41,294 nt of DNA from IMG/VR virus record IMGVR_UViG_645951847_000024. One strand, given 5' to 3'. This DNA is from a virus (Duplodnaviria > Heunggongvirae > Uroviricota > Caudoviricetes). Shown one piece after another: positions 1-12,853 of this stretch. The position numbers and the translations under genes are program-made. How positions within the stretch are numbered: position 1 is the stretch's first letter; every line of letters starts with the position of its first letter. The notes under the pieces were generated by a model. That model was given only the letters and a program-made list of their open reading frames with translations, ran no database searches and was not told the DNA's origin.

Positions 1-3000
1 TTGCTCACCTTTACGGATTCGCGTCAGGGTACCGCTCGCATTTCAGCCCGCTTACAGCAGGATGCCGATAAAGCGACGTTGCGAGCTCTTTGTTACCAGG
101 AGCTGGCAAATATTACAGAGCCTTCAGCAAAACTCAGCCCGGCACACTGTGCACTGTTAGAGAAAGTTATTAGCCAGTTTTCTGTCCTCCCTTTAAAAAA
201 TTCCATCGACGCGCTGAAAAAAGCGATGGCTGCGAATGAGGAGCTTAGCCCGACGGACATTCAGGCACTTAAAATTATTGAGCCGATGGTGAGTTCCTTA
301 AGCACGGAGCATGCTGAAGCGATGCAAATACTTCAGGCTAACTCTGGCAATCAGCAGAAGAAAACCATGTCATGGCAAACGCTGTCTGAACAGCTGGTTG
401 GCAGTGTGGACCTTGCCGATAGAATGAGAGGCAGTTTTAAAGAATTGTCTGGGCTTGATCTTACTAAACAACAGTTTGCAGATTTTTGTTTATACAGCGA
501 GTTTGGTCGCCGCCCTAAAAATGCCTGGACCCTCGAAAGTCTGGGTCTGGTAGCCATTCACTATCCATTCATTGATAAAGTTACAACCTGCCCGCAGGAC
601 TGGAAGACATTATTACCCGATCCCGATAAGCAATTAGCGGAATGGCGTAATTTATTGAAGATTACTCTTGATTTCTTTATCCGTGAAAACAGTGCCGTTT
701 TTTACGAAAACGAGCAATACCCTCGCTGGATGGGGGCACGTTTCCCGGTAAAAATGCTCCAGGGGCCAGATAAAAAAAACAAAGGGCAGAAACGTGATCA
801 ACTTTGGCCACAAATACGCGATCGCCATTATAACCGGGTCATTAAGCTATTAATCGCAGTCTTTCCGGCAATACAACCTGAGCAGGCTCACTGGAAATCG
901 TTAGTTAACCACTTAATGATTGAGGTCTGGGATGCAATTCGACCCTGCTTACGTCAGTTTGAGTCGGGTTATCAGCTGGATATTAAACAACAAGCTGAAT
1001 TTTACAGTCCAAAGCAAGTGTGGCGTTGCCCCTATACTCGACGTGCGTTAGACGTCACGTTGCTGGGATACTCTCCGTATTTGCCGGGTAGCAAAGAAAT
1101 TGCACCTGAAAAAGCAGTGTTGATTGAAATGCCTGAGCTTCCTGTACGTCACTGGCGTTTGTCTGGTGGTGGAGAAATCGCCCGAGAAGAACGTCTGGAG
1201 TGGCTGGAAAGTAATGCGCTGATTCAACATGCCCGCGAGGAAGGATTATGGTCTACTCGCAGCGACCGACTGGCCCTGAAAGATAGCTGGTATCGTCTGG
1301 AGGAACACTCTGCGCAGAGAACGCCTGAGCAGAACCAGTTTAATGAAAAACAATTTAAGTCAGGCAAAGTTAATGTGCTGAACTGTTCCACGACCATGGA
1401 GATGGGGGTGGATATTGGTGGTATGAGTTTGGTGGCAATGAACAACGTTCCTCCAGCGCCGGCAAATTATTTGCAACGTGCAGGTCGCGCGGGGCGTCGT
1501 GGAGAGAGTGCATCTGCTGCCATTACGTTATGTAAAAACACGGCGCATGGAATGGAGGTATTCAAAGACCCCCTCTGGGCGTTCAACACTACTGCCAGTG
1601 CGCCACGGGTTCGTTTTGGGAGCAGTAGTATTGTTCAACGACATGTTAATGCCCTGGTTTTAGGTCTGTTTTTACGAGCTGAAGTTCCTGATGCGACAAA
1701 ACTGAGTTGCAAATGGTTCTTTGAAGGTGATGAGAGCCAGTGTCTTCGTTTTCTCCATTGGTTAAATCACCAGGCCGATCAGCTGGCGGATAAACTTAAA
1801 CGCCTTACTCAGGGAACCGTACTGATGTCATTGACGGCAACCCAGCTCTTGACCCGCACACAAGCAATGATGCAGCAGGTTGATATCCGCTGGAGAAGCC
1901 AACTTGCGATACTGTTGGAAAATATCGAAGCGTTGAAGGCGGATAACAGCGCGTGGGAAGAAACACCAGCAGGTAAAGCCATCGCTTATCAGCTTCGTGA
2001 TTATCGCGGTGCATATCTGTTTTCTAAACTCATTAGTGAAGCGTTCCTGCCGGGGCATGGTTTCCCGGTTGGCGTAGTCAATTTCAATTATCTGACGGCA
2101 GATGAGCTGGAAAAACGTCGCGCAATAAAAGCCACTCAGGCTGACCCTAATGAAGGGGGAGAAAGCTTTTCTCGTCGTATTGAAAAATTGCCCAGCCGTG
2201 ATTTGCCTACAGCATTACGCGAGTATGCGCCTGGTGCAGATGTGGTATTGGGCGGAAAAGTATATCGTTCCTCGGGCATTATGCTTGGCAAGGTGCTTGC
2301 CAGCGGGCAGGAGCTGTCAGGCGATCATCATATTCCGTGGTTCTGGCATTGCCGTAAATGTGGTGCGGGGGCAACCAGTACTACCCATCCTGTCGAATGT
2401 AGTCACTGCAAAGCGGATATACAGCAACTTGATGTGAAGCGTTATTTACAGCCTGTTGGTTTTGCGACAGATATTCGTTATCAGGCACATAATGATGTAT
2501 CCATGCCTGCACAACTTCCCTGGAAAGATCCACGTGTTCTTGTACCGTCTTCGGTGTGGGTTTCTTTACCCGATGCTGGGCTAGGACGTTACCGTTTTAG
2601 CCATAGTGGGGAATTGTTCCACTTCAGTGAAGGGGAATTTGGGCACGGCTACGCAATTTGCCTCTCATGTGGTCGGGCAGAATCTCAAACTCAACCCCAG
2701 CGTACCCCTGAAAATCTAAAGAACCCAGAGAGGGAAAATACGCATTACCTGTTGCGAGGGGGCAGTAACGATCGTCAGGGGAGCAATAAATTGTGCCACG
2801 GTCATGTGCATAAAGATCTGTGGTTGGGATATAGCAGTCGTACAGATATGGTTGAGCTGCAACTCAATGATGATAATGGCCTGTTGATCCGTGATGAGGT
2901 TGCCGCGCGTTCCCTTGCGGTCGCTTTGCGTGAAGGGTTAGCGCATAAATTGGGTATCGAAAATACTGAGCTGGGCGTGACGACGCAGCAAGCGCGCGAT

Positions 3001-3279
3001 ATCAATGGCTATACCGGATATTCCATCTTCATTTACGACAATAATGCGGGTGGTGCAGGTTATGCAGTGCAATTGATCGACCATTGGGCTGATGTCTTTA
3101 ATTACGCCAGAAAATTGCTCGATTGCAGTTGCGATAAATTCTGTCACCACTGCTTGCTCAGCTACGACAGTCAGCATTATGTCAACAGATTAGATCGTCA
3201 CCATGCATTAACCCTGCTTACCAATGTACGGTTGCAGCGACTTAACCTCGCGCCAGATATAGCGCGGCGATTTTTTTGA
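1..3279 (+). CDS. C-terminal part (5' end cut by window) of a large SF2 helicase with a Cys-rich DUF1998-like zinc-ribbon C-terminal domain; probably host-encoded
   Basis: Helicase C-domain motifs TMEMGVDIGG and QRAGRAGRRG in the translation; C-terminal Cys clusters (CRKCGAG...CSHC, CLSCG, CSCDKFCHHC). ORF starts at window position 1, so truncated. Family assignment from memory only. Confidence 0.6.
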   Translation: MLTFTDSRQGTARISARLQQDADKATLRALCYQELANITEPSAKLSPAHCALLEKVISQFSVLPLKNSIDALKKAMAANEELSPTDIQALKIIEPMVSSLSTEHAEAMQILQANSGNQQKKTMSWQTLSEQLVGSVDLADRMRGSFKELSGLDLTKQQFADFCLYSEFGRRPKNAWTLESLGLVAIHYPFIDKVTTCPQDWKTLLPDPDKQLAEWRNLLKITLDFFIRENSAVFYENEQYPRWMGARFPVKMLQGPDKKNKGQKRDQLWPQIRDRHYNRVIKLLIAVFPAIQPEQAHWKSLVNHLMIEVWDAIRPCLRQFESGYQLDIKQQAEFYSPKQVWRCPYTRRALDVTLLGYSPYLPGSKEIAPEKAVLIEMPELPVRHWRLSGGGEIAREERLEWLESNALIQHAREEGLWSTRSDRLALKDSWYRLEEHSAQRTPEQNQFNEKQFKSGKVNVLNCSTTMEMGVDIGGMSLVAMNNVPPAPANYLQRAGRAGRRGESASAAITLCKNTAHGMEVFKDPLWAFNTTASAPRVRFGSSSIVQRHVNALVLGLFLRAEVPDATKLSCKWFFEGDESQCLRFLHWLNHQADQLADKLKRLTQGTVLMSLTATQLLTRTQAMMQQVDIRWRSQLAILLENIEALKADNSAWEETPAGKAIAYQLRDYRGAYLFSKLISEAFLPGHGFPVGVVNFNYLTADELEKRRAIKATQADPNEGGESFSRRIEKLPSRDLPTALREYAPGADVVLGGKVYRSSGIMLGKVLASGQELSGDHHIPWFWHCRKCGAGATSTTHPVECSHCKADIQQLDVKRYLQPVGFATDIRYQAHNDVSMPAQLPWKDPRVLVPSSVWVSLPDAGLGRYRFSHSGELFHFSEGEFGHGYAICLSCGRAESQTQPQRTPENLKNPERENTHYLLRGGSNDRQGSNKLCHGHVHKDLWLGYSSRTDMVELQLNDDNGLLIRDEVAARSLAVALREGLAHKLGIENTELGVTTQQARDINGYTGYSIFIYDNNAGGAGYAVQLIDHWADVFNYARKLLDCSCDKFCHHCLLSYDSQHYVNRLDRHHALTLLTNVRLQRLNLAPDIARRFF

Positions 3280-3390
3280 TACCGATTTGCATTTCATTTG
3301 ATACCGCTGAAAAACGCCGATACGCAACTTATTTGATACTAAATCGGCGCTTTTCTTTTGAGTTTTAGAATGAGTTTTTAAGCGCTCATT
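3280..3390. mobile_element. Candidate prophage right-end region (transposase-binding repeats?); exact terminus not resolved
   Basis: Three TTTGATAC(C/T) motifs at about 3273, 3298 and 3343, and a 13-bp inverted repeat (GAAAAACGCCGAT / ATCGGCGCTTTTC, about 3309-3357) between the host stop codon and the mom stop. No match to the canonical Mu terminal sequence. Confidence 0.3.
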
Positions 3391-4123
3391 CACTCTCTTT
3401 CAAACCAGTTTTAACTGTTTGTGGTTTTGGGTAAGGCTGGACTTTGAATAGCTTTGTGTTGAGGCGTTTTCTGGCCCTCTTGTTCAGAAACCGGATGTAA
3501 CGAAACTGTCGGAACTTATGAACACTGGCTCTGTCAATATTAGCCCTCAGATGTTCACCTCGTTGTCCGCCTCGTTTAATGGCATTCCTGCAAATCTCGT
3601 GATACCACTCGCCATCAAGTTCATAGAATATTGATTCATGGCTGCCTACATAATCAAAATTGCTTGCCTGATACACGACACCAAGACAGCCACAACGCTC
3701 ATCTGCAAACGACTGAACCCACTGTACCTGCGGATAAAGCTGCCTGATTAGCTTGAGCGCGTAACTGATTGCCCTTGATTCGGAGTTTCTCGGCATACAG
3801 TCATGCAGCCATAGCCGGTTAAGCTCCATATATTCTCGGTTCTGCGTACCCGTTACGACGCGTGCACCACTGTTTGGGTTAAGGGCGTAACCCCATTGCA
3901 TTACGCCAACAAGTTCCCGTTCTGAAAATATGCCCAGATGAAGGTAGGAGTTATTTACGAAACGGTGGCTGTAATGTTTATTGACGATGACCAGTCTGGC
4001 CAGCCAGCAACTTATTGTCTCAACCCGCAACTCACGGGAGCCATAACCAACGATATTGTCGTTATAGCGAATAAGTTCAGGCGTGCTGATGATTCGGGAT
4101 GTGACTTGCTTTCTGTTCCCCAC
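3386..4123 (-). CDS. mom: Mom-like DNA modification protein (anti-restriction)
   Basis: Last gene before the prophage right end, directly downstream of and overlapping a clear Com homologue, as in Mu com-mom. Identity by synteny only; Mom sequence not recalled. Confidence 0.55.
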
Positions 4124-4277
4124 GACAGGATTTCCTTGTGTATGTGGGGTGCTCTGTGGCGCTCGGAGATGTGATTTGATTGAGGGTTTTACAGCGCGGA
4201 CATTTTACTTCCAGATAACTGAAACTGGCCCGTGCCAGTAGCTTATTGCAGTGTCGGCACCGTATGTTTCGATACAT
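4077..4277 (-). CDS. com: Com zinc-finger translational activator of mom
   Basis: [14 protein letters not shown]...EVKCPRCK...EHPT closely parallels Mu Com (IRCKNCNKLL...IRCPRCK...EHPT); overlaps mom start. Start taken at internal ATG (residue 16 of the 4077-4322 ORF). Confidence 0.7.
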
Positions 4278-4324
4278 GACCGCATAACCTCCTGCTTTGT
4301 TGTTGATGCCTTTCTCATGCAATC

Positions 4325-4341: not shown

Positions 4342-4688
4342 GATTCGATTTGTTTAATTGATACAACAAATAGATTGAAAAGTCATCAACAATGATTCAG
4401 GGAGGTGATTATTTACTTAAAGAAAACGAAGAGTTAGGTGGTGAAAACGATCATAAAATGATCATTTTATTGACTTTTTATACAGTGAAGGTAGGATCAC
4501 GCGTATATGTAGTATGTTTCAAATCAACAGGATACTACATAAAAGTGAAACCCAGCATAGCTGGAACTATGCTGGGTCAATCTGTAAAAACTTGCATCAA
4601 TGCTTTACTTCGAGCTCGTGGCGTATCCTATGATATTCCCCGGTCTCCTGTAAAGCAGAGATGCATAAAAAGGAGATCTTTATCATGG

Positions 4689-4856
4689 ATGAAAGAGCCT
4701 GTTTGCCCTGCCTGTAAGACTCCCTTACAGCTCATCTATCGCCGTTCTCGATCTCAAAATGGCAAGACATACAAACCCAAAAATGCTTCCTGTTTCAGGA
4801 TGCTGATATGTCCTGCCTGTTCTCCCAGGAGGGAAAATACACAAAACGTGCATTAA
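4689..4856 (+). CDS. Small 4-Cys zinc-ribbon protein (55 aa), function unknown
   Basis: MKEPVCPACKTPL...CFRMLICPACSP with CPxC...CPxC spacing; AAAAGGAG Shine-Dalgarno at 4669-4676 upstream of ATG 4689. The longer 4392-4856 ORF upstream looks non-coding. Confidence 0.3.
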   Translation: MKEPVCPACKTPLQLIYRRSRSQNGKTYKPKNASCFRMLICPACSPRRENTQNVH

Positions 4857-4894: not shown

Positions 4895-5140
4895 TTACAT
4901 CATAGTACCGTCAGTTCCGGGCTGAACCGGCTCTGGTTGCTCTACGGGTTGAGGATCATTTTCCGTGCTGTTTTCAGCCGGAGAACGGCCAACCATTCGG
5001 GCCAGCACTTCATCAACATATGCGTCGATTTGTGCCTCAAAATCCTTGCGAACCTGCGCCTTCAGCACGCGGTTCACTTCTTCAGAATAAAGTGCCTGTT
5101 TGACAAGCTCTTCAGTAACCGTGCCTTTAATCTCTGGCAT
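4895..5140 (-). CDS. Hypothetical acidic 81-aa protein with Pro/Glu-rich C-terminal tail
   Basis: Protein-like amphipathic N-terminal half; strong SD (AAAAGGAG) 8 nt upstream of the ATG on the minus strand. Confidence 0.5.
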   Translation of the reverse strand: MPEIKGTVTEELVKQALYSEEVNRVLKAQVRKDFEAQIDAYVDEVLARMVGRSPAENSTENDPQPVEQPEPVQPGTDGTMM

Positions 5141-5175: not shown

Positions 5176-5358
5176 TCAGAGCGGGGTCGGGTCGTTTGGG
5201 GATGACGGTGCCTGTGCTGTTTTACTGAGTTTTTCAGCTGCCGCATCATCAATTTTACGGCGAATATAATTTCTGATGACCTTATAACCACCGCTCACCA
5301 GATATAACGCACTGACCACAGCGCAGAAATAAAGCAGCATTGTATGAACGAATGTCAT
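5176..5358 (-). CDS. Hypothetical small membrane protein (60 aa, single N-terminal TM helix)
   Basis: Hydrophobic stretch LLYFCAVVSALYLVSGG followed by a basic region; weak SD (AAGG) upstream. Confidence 0.45.
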   Translation of the reverse strand: MTFVHTMLLYFCAVVSALYLVSGGYKVIRNYIRRKIDDAAAEKLSKTAQAPSSPNDPTPL

Positions 5359-5426: not shown

Positions 5427-5451
5427 ACTCCTTCGGGAGTATTTTTATTTT
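5427..5451 (+). terminator. Hairpin with UUCG loop followed by T-run (plus-strand terminator-like)
   Basis: ACTCC-TTCG-GGAGT at 5427-5440 followed by ATTTTTATTTT. Confidence 0.3.
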
Positions 5452-5469: not shown

Positions 5470-5514
5470 CTCCCGCCAGCCATATCATGACCGGCGGGAT
5501 TTTTTTATTCTGTT
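5470..5514 (+). terminator. GC-rich hairpin followed by T7 run (plus-strand terminator-like), overlapping the esterase stop codon
   Basis: TCCCGCC (5471-5477) pairs with GGCGGGA (5493-5499), then TTTTTTTATT. On the minus strand the same hairpin is not followed by a T-run. Confidence 0.4.
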
Positions 5515-7544
5515 ACCGCTTTTTTCACTTCCACCACAATGCTGTCAATCAGCACCGGGTAAGTTGCATTTTTTGTGATATCCGTTACGCGGAGTTTGTC
5601 CACCGGGAAAGTTCCTACTGGTGACTGCGTCAGGGTAAACGCGGCACCATCCTGACCATCAATAACCGGAATAACCTGAAGGCTGTTATTTCCTGCAAAA
5701 CGGAAGGCCAGCGTATGCCATTCATTATCAAATGCACCAAAGGTTCCCAGTTTCTGGTTATTTGTTGCCACTTTTGCATTGTGGTACATCACATTCAGGT
5801 CTTTTGCGTCTGTCTGGATGTAGAACGATGCCAGCAGATTATTCCCTGCATCCCCTGTCAGGGTGACACCCTGCGGCAGAGAGGAAACCGGCCAGTAAAG
5901 CCCCATGACATACTGGTTTGCCACCAGGTCGCCAGGTACTTTAAAACGACAACTGATTAAACCACCATTTTTCAGCAGTTCAGCACCAGTACCGGCATCA
6001 TGATCCAGATACCAAGATGATTTACCTGTTTCCTTGGTCAGTTTCATTGCCTTACCACCTGTGCCTCCTGCATCACTGATAATTTCAGCTTTACCGCCAG
6101 CCGGCTCCCAGCCCTGGGCTTTCAGATTTCCTTCTGACTCACTGACACGATAAGACAGCAGTGTTGTGGTTACTGCTTCAGTTTCTGAAGGTGACGGCAC
6201 TGGTGCTTCAGTTTCAGAAGATGGAACATCGGCTTTTACTGTGGTTCGCCCCGCATGAGTCAGAACTGCCGTGGCCAGACGGTCGGAAATAATCCCACGA
6301 CGTGCCCATGAACTGAAATGGCTGGCCCGGTCCGCAGATGTCCAGGTGGCGGCACTGTTACGCCACGTTGAGCCGTAATAACCAATGGATTCAATATCCG
6401 GGTCTTCTGCCGGATTGTTGGTGGGTACATTCGCGTCATTTTCATCTGTCATTAATGGAACGAAATGAATGTTTTTATCTGTTTTGTTTTTGTAGCCGCC
6501 ATAGATTGCCTGGTATGCCGGTTCATTTTTCTGTTTCCAGAAATACGTGGTATCGCCACAAATCCACGGAACGCCAGCAGCACTGCCACCGGTACACTGT
6601 TCCGCCTGTTCAGCCAGGTCTGCGCGGAATTTTTCCACCATCGCCAGAAACAGCGCGGAATGCTCCGTCGGCTTCGCATCAATATCAAACTCGCCCTGCA
6701 TCCACACCACAGCAAGCAGGCGGTTTTTCGGGTTCTTCGCCAGTGCCGCTTTTGTCCGGCTGATTAAGTCCTTATACAGCGGCTTATCCACACCCCAGCG
6801 GGCTGAGTCCTCTGAAGCACCCGTGCTGTCACTGTACGTGCCGTCAGCACCCGCCGTGAATGCAGAACCACCACGGCAGCAGGGAACCAGCAGAATCCCC
6901 GCATCTGCCGGAATAAACGGCAGCAGTTTTTTGGCAATGTGAAGCCCCTGACCCACGGTGCCATATTGCCCTTTAGCCACATCCGCTTTCGGGTGATTTT
7001 TTCCACTCATATCCTGCACATCATGCAGACAGTGGTCGGCCAGAATGATGTCGTTATACTGACAGGCTTTACCTCCCGGCGTGACTGTACTGCGACGGGC
7101 TAACTGCATAATACGCGGTTCGGGGCGGTCATATGTCTCCGGCAGTGGCAGACCTTCACCGTAAGCCATACCGTTTGACTGACCAGCAAGAACCACCACG
7201 TAATACCAGGAAGGGGAGCTGGAAGCAGTTTCATTTCCTGACGGACGGGTATGTGTTTCAGCATTATCCCAGTCTGACGGTTCAGCAGTACCGGCAACAT
7301 CAGCACTTAACGGAATGACCGCACCAATACCCGCTCCGGTAATTTCCACACTCGGATCACCGGATACTGGCCTTACCCACAGGCAATCCCGTGTATTAAA
7401 ACTGATGAGACAGTCAGCAAATGTCATTCCTCCTTTTGTTTCGGCCGGAGGAAAGGGAGCCTCAAGAAATGCCGCTGTACCACCGGAAACTTTAACAGTA
7501 AAGTTTCCGGGCATTGATGATAGTTGAACCCATTTGGACGTCAT
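5505..7544 (-). CDS. Predicted sialate O-acetylesterase-like cargo protein (SGNH/SASA-type esterase with extra N- and C-terminal domains), NanS-p-like
   Basis: 679 aa; VVLAGQSNGMAYGEG resembles the GQSN catalytic-Ser block of sialic-acid-specific acetylesterases; sits between gin and com-mom, where Mu has no gene. Family from memory. Confidence 0.6.
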   Translation of the reverse strand: MTSKWVQLSSMPGNFTVKVSGGTAAFLEAPFPPAETKGGMTFADCLISFNTRDCLWVRPVSGDPSVEITGAGIGAVIPLSADVAGTAEPSDWDNAETHTRPSGNETASSSPSWYYVVVLAGQSNGMAYGEGLPLPETYDRPEPRIMQLARRSTVTPGGKACQYNDIILADHCLHDVQDMSGKNHPKADVAKGQYGTVGQGLHIAKKLLPFIPADAGILLVPCCRGGSAFTAGADGTYSDSTGASEDSARWGVDKPLYKDLISRTKAALAKNPKNRLLAVVWMQGEFDIDAKPTEHSALFLAMVEKFRADLAEQAEQCTGGSAAGVPWICGDTTYFWKQKNEPAYQAIYGGYKNKTDKNIHFVPLMTDENDANVPTNNPAEDPDIESIGYYGSTWRNSAATWTSADRASHFSSWARRGIISDRLATAVLTHAGRTTVKADVPSSETEAPVPSPSETEAVTTTLLSYRVSESEGNLKAQGWEPAGGKAEIISDAGGTGGKAMKLTKETGKSSWYLDHDAGTGAELLKNGGLISCRFKVPGDLVANQYVMGLYWPVSSLPQGVTLTGDAGNNLLASFYIQTDAKDLNVMYHNAKVATNNQKLGTFGAFDNEWHTLAFRFAGNNSLQVIPVIDGQDGAAFTLTQSPVGTFPVDKLRVTDITKNATYPVLIDSIVVEVKKAVTE

Positions 7545-7643
7545 AATAATCAGCCTGTTCCTGAATAAACTGAATTATCATATCCACAGACCGATAAACG
7601 CCATTTTGCGTTAATTCAGTAAAGGCCCAACAAAGGGAGCGTC

Positions 7644-8204
7644 TTATTTTTCCGAAACGCTCGCAGGATAATAACGATAAAGGGTTGAAAGGCCGATATC
7701 AAAAATAAGTGCCACCTGTCTTCGACTGACACCCCCGGCCAGTAAACGCCCGACCTGCTCGTATTGTTCCTGCGTGAGACGACGGGGTCTGCCGCCGGTT
7801 CGTCCCCTTTCACGGGCAGCTGCAAGACCAGCCCGTGTCCGTTCGACAATTAATTCACGCTCCATTTCTGCCAGCGCACCCATTATGTGAAAAAAGAAGC
7901 GCCCCATGGGGGTTGACGTATCAATGTTGTCAGTAAGACTACGAAAATTTATCCCCTGTTGCTGTAATTCATCTGTCAGCGCAACAAGGTGGCGCATACT
8001 GCGCCCCAGCCTGTCCAGTTTCCAGACCATCAGTGTGTCACCGGGTTTTAGTTTCTTCAGTGCCCGCTTCAGTCCCGGCCGCTGTGTCGTTTTACCACTC
8101 ATTTTATCTTCAAAAATCTGCTCACATCCTGCACATTCCAGCGCATTTCTTTGTAAACCTGTGTTCTGGTCATTTGTTGATACGCGTATATAGCCAATCA
8201 GCAT
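7644..8204 (-). CDS. gin: Serine DNA invertase (Gin/Hin/Pin/Cin family)
   Basis: MLIGYIRVSTNDQNTGLQRNALECAGCEQIFEDK...GRFFFHIMGALAEMERELI is near-identical in pattern to Mu Gin; catalytic Ser in RVSTNDQ; adjacent to an inverted tail-fibre segment. Confidence 0.93.
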   Translation of the reverse strand: MLIGYIRVSTNDQNTGLQRNALECAGCEQIFEDKMSGKTTQRPGLKRALKKLKPGDTLMVWKLDRLGRSMRHLVALTDELQQQGINFRSLTDNIDTSTPMGRFFFHIMGALAEMERELIVERTRAGLAAARERGRTGGRPRRLTQEQYEQVGRLLAGGVSRRQVALIFDIGLSTLYRYYPASVSEK

Positions 8205-8283: not shown

Positions 8284-8629
8284 TACTGTAAACAGGGCCG
8301 CGAATGCCCTGCCATCGAACGGAGCGGCTGTTGCAGCGAATAAACTCGCCACTCCAAGAAATATTAATGGTGTCCCATTTGACGGAACGCAGGATATAAA
8401 TATTACATCGGGGATGACGCAGTCTGTGGCTGACTCACGTTATGTTCAAAGCATTCGAAGAGGTTCAAGGTCAACGATTGGAATGCAATATAATATTTTT
8501 GAGGTTCCTGACGGATGCGTACTTACAGGGCTTGATGTCGCTGGTGATGGTAATGCAACGGTAACCGCATATTATCGACCTGTTCAGTTTCTGATAGATG
8601 GTTCGTGGAAAACAGCTTCCAGCGCATAA
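8273..8629 (+). CDS. Alternative tail-fibre C-terminal cassette (S'v), silent in this orientation
   Basis: Frame open from 8267; encodes GLRDTVNRAANALPSNGAAVAANKLATPRNINGVPFDGTQDINITSGMTQSVADSRYVQ, homologous to residues about 196-255 of the minus-strand tail fibre (GLRETVNKAADALPSGGTAVAANRLATPRNINGVPFDGTLDINITSGMTQSTADGRYVQ); both tips end YYRPVQ...W.T.SS. Confidence 0.6.
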   Translation, partial: GLRDTVNRAANALPSNGAAVAANKLATPRNINGVPFDGTQDINITSGMTQSVADSRYVQSIRRGSRSTIGMQYNIFEVPDGCVLTGLDVAGDGNATVTAYYRPVQFLIDGSWKTASSA

Positions 8630-8708
8630 AAGTGCAGTAGTTCAAAAAACAGATTATCTGAATAAATATATGATGATTTTGTCTTTTCAACAAAAACAAG
8701 GTGAAATA

Positions 8709-9230
8709 ATGGAGCTTATTAACGTAAAACGATATTACCCGGAACACAAACCCTATGGTGAGGATGTTCAGTATTTCCAGAGTGAGGACGGAAGGGATTT
8801 TTATGAATCTATCCCGCTTTTCACAAAGAAATACAAACTCTGTATTTCGCCTGTAACGGGTATTATCTGCTCTGTTGCTGAAGATGTCTCTGCTTTATAT
8901 CCGGCAGGTTTTACTGTTGTTGAAGTGGACGAACTGCCGGAAGGTGTGAATATTGACGGTAACTGGCAGTTTTCTGATGGCCTGATATCAAAGGTGCCGG
9001 TAAACTGGAAGACGGTTGCTGAAAAGCGCCGCTCATCGCTGCTCCAGGAAGCCAACGAAACTGTGGATGACTGGAAAACGGAATTAAAACTGGACATGAT
9101 TAGCGATGAAAATAAATTACAGCTGACGCGCTGGATGGCGTATATCCGACAGCTTAAAGAAATGCACTTTAATGATATTGCCAGTGAGGGGCATTACCAG
9201 GCGATTCCCTGGCCGGAAAAACCGGAATAA
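8709..9230 (+). CDS. Tail-fibre assembly (chaperone) protein, U'-like
   Basis: Follows S'v on the same strand; AAGGTGA SD before ATG 8709 (MELINVKRYYPEHK...); C-terminal ...IPWPEKPE resembles Tfa family ends. Family from memory. Confidence 0.65.
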   Translation: MELINVKRYYPEHKPYGEDVQYFQSEDGRDFYESIPLFTKKYKLCISPVTGIICSVAEDVSALYPAGFTVVEVDELPEGVNIDGNWQFSDGLISKVPVNWKTVAEKRRSSLLQEANETVDDWKTELKLDMISDENKLQLTRWMAYIRQLKEMHFNDIASEGHYQAIPWPEKPE

Positions 9231-9264
9231 TTCAGAGGGTGCATTCAGCACCCTTTTCTGTGGT

Positions 9265-10176
9265 TTACACTGAACTTACCGTTCTCCAGGCATTATTAAT
9301 ATAAATCTGAACCGGGCGATAATAGACCCCACCGATATTGTCCGCAGACCGGGAGCCGGTTTCCTGCACGTTAATTCCGGAAAGCATACAACCGGAAGGT
9401 GCGCTGTAATTCCATGACATTTCATTGCCTCCGGGTGAATGATAGCTCTGTGCTCCAAGCTGAACATTCTGTACATACCGGCCATCTGCGGTTGACTGCG
9501 TCATTCCTGACGTGATGTTGATATCCAGCGTTCCGTCAAAAGGAACACCATTAATATTTCTTGGGGTGGCGAGTCTGTTTGCTGCCACGGCGGTTCCACC
9601 CGATGGCAGGGCATCAGCAGCCTTATTTACCGTTTCCCGTAAACCAACGTTATCGATAAAAGCGCCTTTATCCGGAATGTCTGCGCCGTTCTGCTCCCTG
9701 CGCAGGTAACGGTTATCACCTTCGCTTTTGCTGTAAACATCCAGATTATTACGGGCGGTTCCCGCATTCTCCAGGTCGGCAAGGTTCTGATCCTTCGCCA
9801 GAGCATTAACGTCACCGGGACCAAGACTGTTTTTTGTGGCAAGCGCCCCAAGACCAAGATAACCACGGGCAAGACGCTGGGCTTCCGCACCGGCATCAGC
9901 AATTTCTTTCAGGTTGTTTTTCCGGGAAAAGGCATTCGCAGCGATAATGGCTTTAATGGACAGCGTAAGCTGGTTTAACTGCGCCTTATCCGGCTGAATA
10001 CTGGCTTCAGCCAGAATATTCAGCAGTTCGGCCTGGAGAATATTCAGCCAGTCCTGACCAATCCAGCTGATACCTTTTTGTCCGTCACCTTCGGTAAACC
10101 AGGTGGTGGTATTACTCTGCGCCGGTGCCAGCGCAGGCATATTCGCCACGCCGGAATTATTATCAACATGGAACAT
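9265..10176 (-). CDS. Tail fibre protein S (constant part joined to Sv tip in current orientation)
   Basis: Start taken at internal ATG (MFHVDNNSGVANMPALAPA) overlapping the upstream stop (TAATG); position after baseplate genes. Confidence 0.8.
   Translation of the reverse strand: MFHVDNNSGVANMPALAPAQSNTTTWFTEGDGQKGISWIGQDWLNILQAELLNILAEASIQPDKAQLNQLTLSIKAIIAANAFSRKNNLKEIADAGAEAQRLARGYLGLGALATKNSLGPGDVNALAKDQNLADLENAGTARNNLDVYSKSEGDNRYLRREQNGADIPDKGAFIDNVGLRETVNKAADALPSGGTAVAANRLATPRNINGVPFDGTLDINITSGMTQSTADGRYVQNVQLGAQSYHSPGGNEMSWNYSAPSGCMLSGINVQETGSRSADNIGGVYYRPVQIYINNAWRTVSSV
9635..9659. other. gix/hix-like crossover site B (inside tail-fibre gene S)
   Basis: TCCCGTAAACC-AA-CGTTATCGATA on plus; its inner arm is the exact reverse complement of the inner arm of site A (GGTTTACGGGA). 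S/S' homology begins exactly here. Confidence 0.5.
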
Positions 10177-10736
10177 TAAATATTCTCCTCTTCGTGACTG
10201 TTTGCATATACGTAAATAAACGTCTGCCATGCAGGCTTATAACGGTTCAGAATACATTCCAGCGCACCGCCTTCATAAATACGCAGCGGCGTGAGAATAT
10301 CATCCAGCACATTCATATTCCGGTAGCCGGTTTCACTGTTAATCGTGACAATACTGACCCACTGTGAATCCGGTGATGGCTGAATATCTATTTCATAACC
10401 AAACTCTGCCGCAAACCGGATATAAAATTCACGGTTAAGAGAGGGTTTCATCCGGTATTTATTCCCGGCATAACGCTGACGCTCCTGAATTGTTGCGCCG
10501 GTCATATCACATTCCGGTAACCCCAGATAACGCTCCCAGTCTTCCAGCAGCAGACGGGATGAATCAGGAAAACGTTCTGCCAGCATCTGGTTACCGGTCC
10601 AGGAAACACGCTCCGTGGAATGACTGAGGCCCAGGCACAAAGCCGCAAGAACGGATGACGGCCGCTTATCCCATGCCAGCCCGTCAGGCAGCAACTGCAA
10701 CAGGGCACGCTGATGCGGGGTCAGGGTTACAGCCAT
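10176..10736 (-). CDS. Baseplate/tail protein, Mu gp48-like
   Basis: Position between baseplate J-like gene and tail fibre; translationally coupled. Confidence 0.6.
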   Translation of the reverse strand: MAVTLTPHQRALLQLLPDGLAWDKRPSSVLAALCLGLSHSTERVSWTGNQMLAERFPDSSRLLLEDWERYLGLPECDMTGATIQERQRYAGNKYRMKPSLNREFYIRFAAEFGYEIDIQPSPDSQWVSIVTINSETGYRNMNVLDDILTPLRIYEGGALECILNRYKPAWQTFIYVYANSHEEENI

Positions 10737-11812
10737 GTGATTTCCCCCACGGTCAGCAACTCTGTATCTCCGGCCATCACGGACTTCAGCGGGCTGCGAA
10801 CTTCAAAATCCTCCAGTCCTTTCACCCCTGCAACAGCCCGCCAGAATGATGAAGGCAATACAAGTCCACCCGGCCGCGATTCGTTATAAAGCAGGTCCGT
10901 TAATGCCTGTTTTACGGCAGCCTGATTTTCCGGCGTTTTGGGTACAATCCTGATCTCAAACGCCACCGGCTTATTGGTCAGCTTAAACACGCTGATTGTC
11001 GGCCCAAGTGGCTGACCAACGGGCTGGCCCGTCGCCGGATCATCATGACTGCGGATATAATCCGCCACCCGCTTCACATCACCTTCTCCGGGGAAAATGT
11101 CAGGGTTATTATCCTGAACAAAAGTCACACCAACACTACCCGCCTCAGGCCATTCAGGCTTACACCATGCCCGCGTCACGCCCGGTACTTCCCGTGCCCA
11201 GCGTTCAAAATCATACTGTGTTCCCCCTGATGGCGGGTTCTGTACCCGGAATACCAGCCTGGACAGCAACTCCGGCACCGTTTCCACATCCGCACCACCG
11301 GTGAGTCCCGTGCCGGTGACCGTGGCTGTCTGGTTGATGCCCGCCTGTGGCGTGATAAAGGACAGGCGGGTTCCGGTCGGGGTATTTCCAGCGCGCCCCG
11401 CACTTTCCGCCTCCACATTAACATTCAGTGTTCCGGCTTTTCCGGTCGCAGAGCCGGTGATGCGGTACACAACACCATCGCTTCGCTGAAGGAGTACGCC
11501 TTCCGTGATCCCTGCATCCGTGGTCAGCATCAGTTGTACCGGTCCGTCAGCGCGGGAAGCCGGTTTACGGATGACACCCCAGAATGCGCAGTGTTTCAGG
11601 AGTTCGGCTTCATCAGCTTCTGTCGGAATTATCTGCCGGGAGATCCAGGCCAGATGTTCATGCTCCTGTGCTGACAGACCCGCCAGTGCATACGCAATGG
11701 CATTCAGGGTGGTTTCATTCACGCCCGGCTGCGAACCGGGCAGGCGCTGGCTGATATCCTGTTGTGTCTGTGTGATCAGTTGCGCCAGTGGTAAGGGCTG
11801 ATAAGGCATCAT
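10727..11812 (-). CDS. Baseplate J-like protein (Mu gp47-like)
   Basis: 361 aa, position and size in baseplate module. Confidence 0.7.
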   Translation of the reverse strand: MMPYQPLPLAQLITQTQQDISQRLPGSQPGVNETTLNAIAYALAGLSAQEHEHLAWISRQIIPTEADEAELLKHCAFWGVIRKPASRADGPVQLMLTTDAGITEGVLLQRSDGVVYRITGSATGKAGTLNVNVEAESAGRAGNTPTGTRLSFITPQAGINQTATVTGTGLTGGADVETVPELLSRLVFRVQNPPSGGTQYDFERWAREVPGVTRAWCKPEWPEAGSVGVTFVQDNNPDIFPGEGDVKRVADYIRSHDDPATGQPVGQPLGPTISVFKLTNKPVAFEIRIVPKTPENQAAVKQALTDLLYNESRPGGLVLPSSFWRAVAGVKGLEDFEVRSPLKSVMAGDTELLTVGEITWL

Positions 11813-12246
11813 TCCCCCTTCATATCAGCATAAAAAATCATCGGATGTCTGCTTCCGTCCGGCAGGGTGATTTTCACGGAAAGCGAAAGGCGAGCATGCC
11901 CCACACGCATGGCATGACATACCACGGATGTGGCAGCACCGCTTTTATGCAGCCACGCCAGCGCTTCATCAGCATAGGCCTGTGCACGGCTGACCACGGA
12001 GGACAGCGTCTTTTCACGGCTTAACAGCCAGAGACGGGAGCCAACGGGGCGCTCCCGGAAACTGTCTCCCCACCATCCCCGACGGTCACGGGTGCCGTCA
12101 GGGATTTCATCGGAATCCAGCGCCCGCCTGTCCGTAAACAGTGAAATAATGACCGCAGTCAGCAGGCTGTTATCCGTCAGAAGATCTGCGCCGTTCAGTT
12201 GCAGGGAACCGCAACCCTGATCCCAGACGACAGCAATATCAGCCAT
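11809..12246 (-). CDS. Baseplate protein, GP46/W-like
   Basis: Start at internal ATG (MADIAVVWDQGCG...) overlapping upstream stop; the longer ORF N-terminus lies inside the preceding gene. Confidence 0.6.
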   Translation of the reverse strand: MADIAVVWDQGCGSLQLNGADLLTDNSLLTAVIISLFTDRRALDSDEIPDGTRDRRGWWGDSFRERPVGSRLWLLSREKTLSSVVSRAQAYADEALAWLHKSGAATSVVCHAMRVGHARLSLSVKITLPDGSRHPMIFYADMKGE

Positions 12247-12853
12247 TCTCTGGTCCTCCCGTTTTGCTGCCTTCACCGTTATCGTGATGCACATGACCTG
12301 AATAGGTGATCCCGGCAATAACCGCTTCGGACATCGTGAACGTCCCCTGTGATCTTCCGGTGCCGTCAATGGACACATTGCCTTTGACATGCAGGTTCTT
12401 ATCCACTGTGACATTACCGGTAAAGTGAGCCTCCGGTGTATCCACCTGAACACCTTCATCGGCGTAAATCTCCAGCGTCTTACAGGTCACAATGATCCGG
12501 CCGTTCTTTGTCAGACGTATACGGTGCCCCTCATGGTGATACACGCCGGTATCTCCGGCGGTAAGTCCGGTCGGGCGACTGCGGCGGTCTTCCACCACAA
12601 GCACCACGGCCTGATCCCGTTGTCCGCCAGCACAGGCCAGAAAAACTTCCGCACCAGGCAGGGGGACGCTGATTTGCCCGTACTGCTGGGGGCGTTCAAC
12701 GTCATCAAAGGTTTCACCATCCATACCGGTGATTTGCACATTCTGGATTTTCAGCGTGTCCGTTGTGCCGGTCAGTACACCACGCCCGAACAGCAGACGA
12801 ACACCCCGCATCACGGGGGCCAGAAGGCGGCTGATGACTTCGTCATTCATCAT
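12239..12853 (-). CDS. Baseplate assembly/spike protein V-like (Mu gp45-like)
   Basis: 204 aa, position in baseplate module. Confidence 0.6.
   Translation of the reverse strand: MMNDEVISRLLAPVMRGVRLLFGRGVLTGTTDTLKIQNVQITGMDGETFDDVERPQQYGQISVPLPGAEVFLACAGGQRDQAVVLVVEDRRSRPTGLTAGDTGVYHHEGHRIRLTKNGRIIVTCKTLEIYADEGVQVDTPEAHFTGNVTVDKNLHVKGNVSIDGTGRSQGTFTMSEAVIAGITYSGHVHHDNGEGSKTGGPENG

Follow-up and report, generated by a model that had tools for sequence, protein, structure and literature searches.

NanS-p esterases and a related gene in a Mu-like prophage

NanS (YjhS) is the chromosomal 9-O-acetyl-N-acetylneuraminate esterase of Escherichia coli, a single-domain protein of ~326 amino acids that belongs to the nan regulon and operates as an SGNH type II esterase through a Ser19/His301 dyad with no catalytic Asp (PMC9063846). 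Its phage-borne counterparts, the NanS-p proteins, are encoded by lambdoid phages between stx (or the late promoter region) and the holin/lysis gene S, and are exemplified by the proteins of 933W (L0105/z1466) and phi24B (vb_24B_21/gp84). NanS-p proteins start with a DUF1737 capsid-binding domain, which is followed by SASA and DUF6645 parts. Every NanS-p allele tested in EDL933 and O104:H4 has proven to be an active esterase for Neu5,9Ac2, and these enzymes also de-O-acetylate mucin glycans (PMC8065619). In phi24B, hexamers of the DUF1737 domain have been reported to attach to the central hexons of the T=9 capsid, after which the enzyme part is removed by cleavage (bioRxiv 10.64898/2026.04.10.717836). 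Genes for DUF1378 and DUF826 proteins have been noted after nanS-p, where they are frequent without being universal (PMC10462455). Here we analyze a gene of this type in IMG/VR virus record IMGVR_UViG_645951847_000024, a stretch of 41,294 nucleotides of Caudoviricetes DNA that is called the window throughout. The gene resides in a Mu-like transposable myovirus prophage, between gin and com-mom, and the comparisons presented below indicate that it very probably encodes a NanS-p-type sialate O-acetylesterase that is an old component of Mu-like phages.

A first-pass annotation, prepared from the letters of this DNA without database searches, had called a 679-amino-acid protein with an SGNH/SASA-type esterase core at 5505-7544. 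Both parts of that call were borne out. The protein is encoded by a single open reading frame (ORF) on the minus strand, contains the quoted motif VVLAGQSNGMAYGEG, and carries GQSN at residues 121 through 124. A hidden Markov model search with the Pfam SASA profile (PF03629) matched residues 116 through 312 with an E value of 6.5e-12, a match that passes the curated cut-off, and the PHROGs family phrog_143 matched with 1027 bits across residues 62 through 677. Moreover, residues 104 through 428 align with NanS/YjhS (PDB 3PT5) over 325 residues with an E value of 1.9e-118. Neither NCBIfam nor PADLOC returned a match for the 679-amino-acid protein.

The alignment with NanS places Ser123 (codon 7176-7178, within GQSN) opposite Ser19, and His409 (codon 6318-6320, within RASH) opposite His301. 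These two residues are the predicted nucleophile and the predicted base, respectively, and RASH is one of the two forms (RSSH/RASH) that the block IV motif takes in NanS-p proteins (PMC10462455). Note that the first-pass annotation would have discarded the esterase assignment if a Ser-His-Asp arrangement were lacking. This is the wrong yardstick for the family, because NanS itself functions with the Ser-His dyad alone.

The C-terminal portion is likewise of NanS-p type. Pfam DUF6645 (PF20350) matched residues 524 through 642 with an E value of 2.4e-69, and residues 459 through 674 match the NanS-p C-terminal domain (PDB 6YP6) with an E value of 1e-111. Four aromatic residues have been proposed as carbohydrate binders in the corresponding domain of phi24B (PMC10462455), and all four are kept in the window protein (Y545, Y550, Y575, and F646, mapped against the residue list of that study). 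NanS shares the catalytic domain with the window protein but has neither its N-terminal domain nor its lectin-like C-terminal domain.

By using tblastn, we recovered 348 phage records, almost all of them from phages that carry Shiga toxin genes (Stx phages) or from other lambdoid phages, with 74-81% amino acid identity extending from residue 65 or 100 to residue ~678. For Stx-phage NanS-p, this identity range applies to 340 phage records. In the NanS-p proteins of Stx and other lambdoid phages, such as those of 933W and phi24B, the SASA and DUF6645 parts are 74-84% identical to those of the window protein. The catalytic motifs, the binding-site aromatics, the adjacent DUF1378 and DUF826 genes, and the lack of a signal peptide are common to both. 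The order esterase-DUF1378-DUF826 is the same downstream of stx in Stx2_14040, and also in 933W, where the gene calls differ. Identities to these Stx2_14040/933W counterparts are 74-80% for the esterase, 53% for the DUF1378 protein, and 38-47% for the DUF826 protein. The esterase, DUF1378, and DUF826 genes form a module that is also found between the stx and lysis genes of Stx phages.

Given these matches, esterase activity of the 679-amino-acid allele is strongly inferred. From the biochemistry of the family, the enzyme is predicted to remove 9-O-acetyl groups from Neu5,9Ac2, either free or on mucin glycans, and the de-O-acetylated sugar would then be usable by sialidases and the Nan pathway. 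The first-pass annotation had also suggested a check for a signal peptide, and no hydrophobic signal sequence is present at the N-terminus. Therefore, the substrate would be reached solely upon phage lysis of the cell, or on the particle.

One further arrangement of these domains was encountered in a myovirus prophage (L131; IMGVR_UViG_2925820202_000001, 8368-12578) whose visible tail genes are non-Mu (DUF2612, Collar tail fibre). Its 705-amino-acid SASA plus DUF6645 esterase has a short N-terminus of ~40 residues, is preceded by a Macro-domain protein and a DUF4376 assembly protein, and is followed by a DUF1353 gene. This protein represents a third N-terminal architecture for the SASA plus DUF6645 esterases.

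The gene occupies a site that is empty in phage Mu

The Mu-like prophage extends from ~3257 to the right edge of the window and reads on the minus strand. It encodes the MuA transposase (truncated where the window ends), MuB, a portal of Mu type, the major head protein gpT, and sheath, tape measure, and baseplate proteins. On the minus strand, the tail-fibre genes are followed by gin, the esterase, DUF1378, and DUF826 genes, and then com and mom, with orf154 on the opposite strand preceding com. Its right end, at ~3257, is 99.94% identical to that of prophage Sp18 down to window position 3257.

In phage Mu, a geneless gap of just 95 bp lies between the end of gin (35673) and the start of com (35768). 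This agrees with the first-pass annotation, which had recognized a Mu-like transposable phage and a site at which Mu has no gene. In contrast, ~3.4 kb with four genes (esterase, DUF1378, DUF826, and orf154) separates gin from com in the window. The order and orientation of gin, com, and mom are common to both, and the remaining prophage architecture is of Mu type.

In E. coli O157:H7 Sakai, prophage Sp18 ('Mu-like phage') encodes a protein, ECs_4993, that is 100% identical in sequence to the 679-amino-acid protein and is annotated as 'hypothetical protein'. Two other names are in use elsewhere in RefSeq, namely 'sialate O-acetylesterase' and 'DUF6645 domain-containing protein'. Thus the gene had already been sequenced and partly annotated, and prophage Sp18 has long been known. 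The identical protein sequence is present on ~1000 contigs, and its sequence cluster holds more than 1000 database proteins. The size of this cluster, together with ratios of nonsynonymous to synonymous divergence (dN/dS) of 0.09-0.22 across the catalytic and C-terminal domains (0.09-0.12 for the catalytic domain), argues that the frame is not a chance ORF. Among 5,426 complete E. coli genomes, 205 carry DNA for the N-terminal domain, and a single genome can hold as many as four copies. The chromosomal site of the prophage varies between strains, and therefore the prophage transposes.

An N-terminal domain unrelated to DUF1737

The first-pass annotation was correct in its comparison with the NanS-p esterases of Stx prophages, to which the protein is 74-81% identical over the region described above, but it overlooked that the N-terminus is not DUF1737. 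Pfam did not detect DUF1737 (PF08410) in the 679-amino-acid protein, and residues 1 through 80 share just 16-18% identity with the N-termini of the 933W and Stx2_14040 proteins. An AlphaFold2 (AF2) model presents this segment as an independent all-beta domain with six strands, with block-mean values of the predicted local distance difference test (pLDDT) of 82-90 at residues 10 through 70 and lower values at both ends. The DUF1737 fold, in contrast, consists of a helix and three strands. NanS-p proteins start with DUF1737, whereas the window protein starts with an unrelated domain of ~80 residues. The presence of this predicted all-beta domain in place of DUF1737 is the new feature of the protein.

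Relatives of the domain were found in other Mu-like lineages, with 59-60% identity in a second lineage of E. coli and Shigella prophages (lineage 2) and 25-35% in two more distant prophages (L013, at 29%, and L129). W5, G21, G22, P33, and W56 are invariant among them. Between the window and lineage 2, the domain has a dN of 0.28-0.30 together with saturation at synonymous sites, a pattern indicative of purifying selection. We scanned 40 loci with a Mu-type N-terminus and found Mu-like gin, tail-fibre, or baseplate genes wherever upstream sequence was retained; DUF1737 was present in none of the 40. A word-indexed protein search with the N-terminal domain alone yielded just fragments of the same protein, and an exhaustive comparison with 1.84 billion representatives yielded four matches, of which one was a distant relative (P0127). 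There was no match to the domain in species-representative genomes or in JGI metagenomes.

Recurrence in diverged Mu-like lineages and exchange of the enzyme part

At the DNA level, the similarity to Stx phages is no higher than 77-81%, does not extend beyond window positions 5516-7206, and is accompanied by a synonymous divergence (dS) of ~1.1. These values speak against a recent capture, as do the recurrence of the gene in diverged Mu-like lineages and the dN/dS of ~0.1. The esterase of lineage 2 is 66% identical overall, lies after the tail-fibre genes regardless of whether gin is present, and is followed by DUF1378, DUF826, and then either com-mom or a C5 methylase gene. In L013, a distant prophage whose baseplate proteins are 24-38% identical and whose gin is 67% identical to those of the window, gin and two small ORFs precede the esterase gene. 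L129 represents a further lineage, in which a 784-amino-acid esterase with the same three domains is encoded directly after the tail-fibre and assembly genes.

From these comparisons, the esterase module is a long-standing right-end part of a group of enterobacterial Mu-like (Sp18-type) prophages, downstream of the tail-fibre and gin genes. The description of the gene as unusual cargo in the first-pass annotation therefore holds in part. The gene is absent from Mu, but it is a common component of Sp18-type Mu-like prophages and recurs at an equivalent position in several Mu-like lineages that have diverged from one another, and thus is no stray moron.

The different parts of the protein have different relationships. 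The catalytic and C-terminal parts of the Sp18-type protein are 77-84% identical to lambdoid alleles versus 69-74% to Mu lineage 2, whereas the N-terminus is related to Mu lineages only. Within lineage 2, N-termini are 98-100% identical and the remainder is 80-94% identical. These patterns indicate that each phage type keeps its own N-terminus, and that the enzyme part is exchanged by recombination. Three loci appear to be hybrid. Two IMG/VR loci (L026 and L031) carry a Mu-like gin and a Mu-type N-terminus upstream and a 933W-type holin and endolysin downstream. The third (L012; GCA_012426925.1) has the reciprocal arrangement, in which a DUF1737 N-terminus is followed by an Sp18-type remainder, DUF1378, DUF826, orf154, com, and mom. 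Either Mu-like and lambdoid prophages have recombined in both directions across the esterase gene that they share, or the three loci are assembly chimeras. The hybrid protein P0068, with a DUF1737 N-terminus and an Sp18-type rest, was set aside because it lies 608 bp from a contig end and is indistinguishable from an assembly chimera. Mu-like and lambdoid prophages have the catalytic region in common, and as a substrate for recombination between them it may drive chromosomal rearrangements.

In some relatives, the position of mom is taken by a gene for a C5 cytosine DNA methyltransferase (11792-12844 in L005-L007, and 13785-14837 in L129), which is a different anti-restriction solution at this position.

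Origin of the gene and role of its N-terminal domain

The module might instead be a recent moron, captured from a lambdoid Stx-type phage by one Mu-like prophage, in which case the N-terminus would be a meaningless fusion. Consistent with such an origin, the catalytic and C-terminal parts are nearer to lambdoid alleles than to the other Mu-like lineage, the DUF1378 and DUF826 partners are found in Stx phages too, and the hybrid loci point to recombination of Mu-type with lambdoid copies. However, the low DNA identity to Stx phages and the high dS value speak against it, as does the selection on the N-terminal domain in four Mu-like lineages, one of which has the highly diverged baseplate proteins of L013. 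Furthermore, the region 5' to the gene is conserved among Mu-like lineages but not in Stx phages. We therefore regard a recent capture as largely refuted and very improbable. The least probable option, which we consider extremely unlikely, is that the gene is an inactive relic, a decaying and functionless copy in a prophage that no longer propagates. The Sakai annotation as a hypothetical protein would fit this, and mitomycin C does not induce Sp18 (PMC2669165). Nevertheless, the 679-amino-acid ORF is intact and retains all catalytic motifs with a dN/dS of ~0.1, Sp18 is predicted to be intact, and the differing insertion sites and multiple copies per genome indicate that the prophage transposes.

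A different question is what the enzyme acts on and where. The first-pass annotation had speculated on acetylated surface polysaccharide, and an enzyme carried on the particle could deacetylate O-antigen, capsule, or another bacterial surface polysaccharide and thereby aid adsorption of the Mu-like phage. In every Mu-like lineage the gene comes directly after tail-fibre, assembly, and gin genes, the esterase of the non-Mu myovirus L131 also follows tail-fibre genes, this possibility has been raised for NanS-p in a review (PMC8065619), and NanS-p is physically associated with phi24B particles (bioRxiv 10.64898/2026.04.10.717836). However, the close alignment of the catalytic domain is with the sialate-specific NanS, the aromatics are those of NanS-p, and the documented NanS-p substrates are Neu5,9Ac2 and mucin glycans (PMC8065619). 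In addition, phi24B has its anchor on the capsid, away from the tail, and releases the enzyme by cleavage, and Pfam detected no tail-spike-like trimerisation or baseplate-attachment domain. Acetylated bacterial surface polysaccharide is thus possible as an alternative substrate, one that is without support among the present findings, and we judge the adsorption role improbable.

Returning to the NanS-p-type sialate O-acetylesterase, its N-terminal beta domain might substitute for the DUF1737 capsid anchor of phi24B NanS-p and serve as an adaptor through which an exchangeable enzyme is tied either to the virion of Mu type or to some other partner specific to the phage type. A constant N-terminus joined to a variable payload is typical of particle-docking proteins. 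By analogy with phi24B, we offer this adaptor role tentatively, as a real possibility that is nonetheless doubtful. The more specific proposal, that the 80-residue domain is a Mu-type virion anchor and that NanS-p esterases are exchangeable virion decorations attached by family-specific adaptors rather than mere morons of benefit to the lysogen, seems unlikely on present evidence.

Several observations weigh against these interpretations. No co-variation was found between the N-terminal variant and the major head protein gpT, as would matter for an anchor: lineage-2 N-termini, at 59% identity, occur with gpT proteins that are 97-98% identical to that of the window, and the window-type N-terminus is found with a gpT that is 91% identical. 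The gene was present in no cultured Mu-like phage of the phage collection searched. For the enzyme itself, the full-length AF2 model, built from an alignment of 14 sequences, has a mean pLDDT of 55 and is unfit for judging active-site geometry, and hence was not used. ECs4993 is unmentioned in the literature searched, which excluded Rangel 2016 and Saile 2016, the reports likeliest to comment on it. The same literature, with Franke 2020 covered via citations, contained no link between NanS-p and Mu-like phages.

If the anchor exists, virions could bind or de-O-acetylate mucus sialoglycans. In enterohaemorrhagic E. coli, several nanS-p copies jointly enable the bacteria to grow on the O-acetylated sialic acids of mucus. 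The copy of Sp18 type is located on a transposable prophage that can be present up to four times per genome, and surveys keyed to DUF1737 or to the stx/lysis context would miss it. Through this natural domain swap, capsid anchoring as recently claimed for the NanS-p N-terminus can also be put to the test in a second family of phages, and should the Mu-type domain likewise bind particles, the esterases would be modular virion decorations.

Table 1. Coordinates of the esterase gene, its domains, and neighbouring features in the window
Feature	Position	Strand	Basis or remark
Esterase gene	5505..7544	-	Single ORF, 679 aa, ATG start, stop codon 5505-5507
N-terminal domain, predicted all-beta, Mu-lineage-specific, not DUF1737	7305..7544	-	aa 1-80; no Pfam match, AF2 model
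Linker 1	7209..7304	-	aa 81-112; Ser/Thr/Pro-rich, predicted disordered (pLDDT <50), poorly conserved; SSP at aa 109-111
SASA/SGNH type II catalytic domain	6240..7208	-	aa 113-435; PDB 3PT5 match, dN/dS 0.09-0.12
Linker 2	6171..6239	-	aa 436-458; repetitive Ser/Pro/Glu; alignment
C-terminal lectin-like jelly-roll domain (DUF6645), putative carbohydrate-binding module	5508..6170	-	aa 459-679; PDB 6YP6, Pfam
5' intergenic region, gin to esterase	7545..7643	-	99 bp; blocks conserved between two E. coli Mu-like lineages (alignment)
gin invertase, upstream neighbour, Mu backbone	7644..8204	-	Pfam Resolvase + HTH_7
DUF1378 gene	5176..5358	-	60 aa, hydrophobic N-terminus; Pfam PF07125, E 1.2e-38
DUF826 gene	4895..5140	-	81 aa; Pfam PF05696
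orf154, unknown-function family	4392..4856	+	154 aa, CxxC...CxxC motifs; phrog_26524, E 2.5e-52; absent from Mu
com, downstream neighbour, Mu backbone	4077-4322	-	Pfam Zn_ribbon_Com
mom, downstream neighbour, Mu backbone	3386-4123	-	Pfam Mom PF25680

Linkers, expression signals, and neighbouring genes

The SSP sequence in linker 1 was considered as a cleavage site like that proposed for phi24B, and it proved uninformative because the motif is not kept in other Mu-type lineages. A widespread allele of 669 residues (e.g. P0008, on ~1000 contigs) lacks 10 residues (SETEAPVPSP) of linker 2.

The 5' region of the esterase gene differs from that upstream of nanS-p in Stx phages. Its conserved blocks are kept also in loci without gin, and it includes a -10-like TATGAT sequence. 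A sigma-70 scan upstream of the esterase gene revealed no convincing promoter, with fewer promoter-like sites than in shuffled sequence, and no clear terminator was found after gin. It is possible that the esterase gene is transcribed by read-through from gin or from a dedicated promoter. Two hairpins followed by T-runs (5427-5450 and 5470-5504) are evident on the plus strand in the interval that separates DUF1378 from the 3' end of the esterase gene. As predicted from their sequence, these would stop transcripts that arrive from orf154 in antisense direction to the esterase operon.

The orf154 product has two CxxC pairs and weak zinc-ribbon matches, and many Mu-like loci retain the gene at this location, with DUF826 on one side and com on the other.

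The invertible tail-fibre segment (8414-10230) is unlike that of Mu. The S gene (9265-10230, minus strand) is convergent with the sole assembly gene (8598-9230, plus strand), which is preceded by an alternative 71-residue fibre C-terminus (8414-8629, plus strand). In the present orientation of the segment, S is without an assembly gene after it.

The prophage is flanked by druE, which encodes the helicase of Druantia type III (PADLOC PDLC00037, 1156 bits; window 1-3279, plus strand). Other O157 genomes have an intact gene of 6315 bp. Relative to it, the junction at ~3257-3260 falls 1137 bp short of the gene end, such that druE loses ~379 codons by the insertion and its ORF continues 22 nucleotides into the Mu end. 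An anti-phage defence gene has been disrupted here by a transposable phage.

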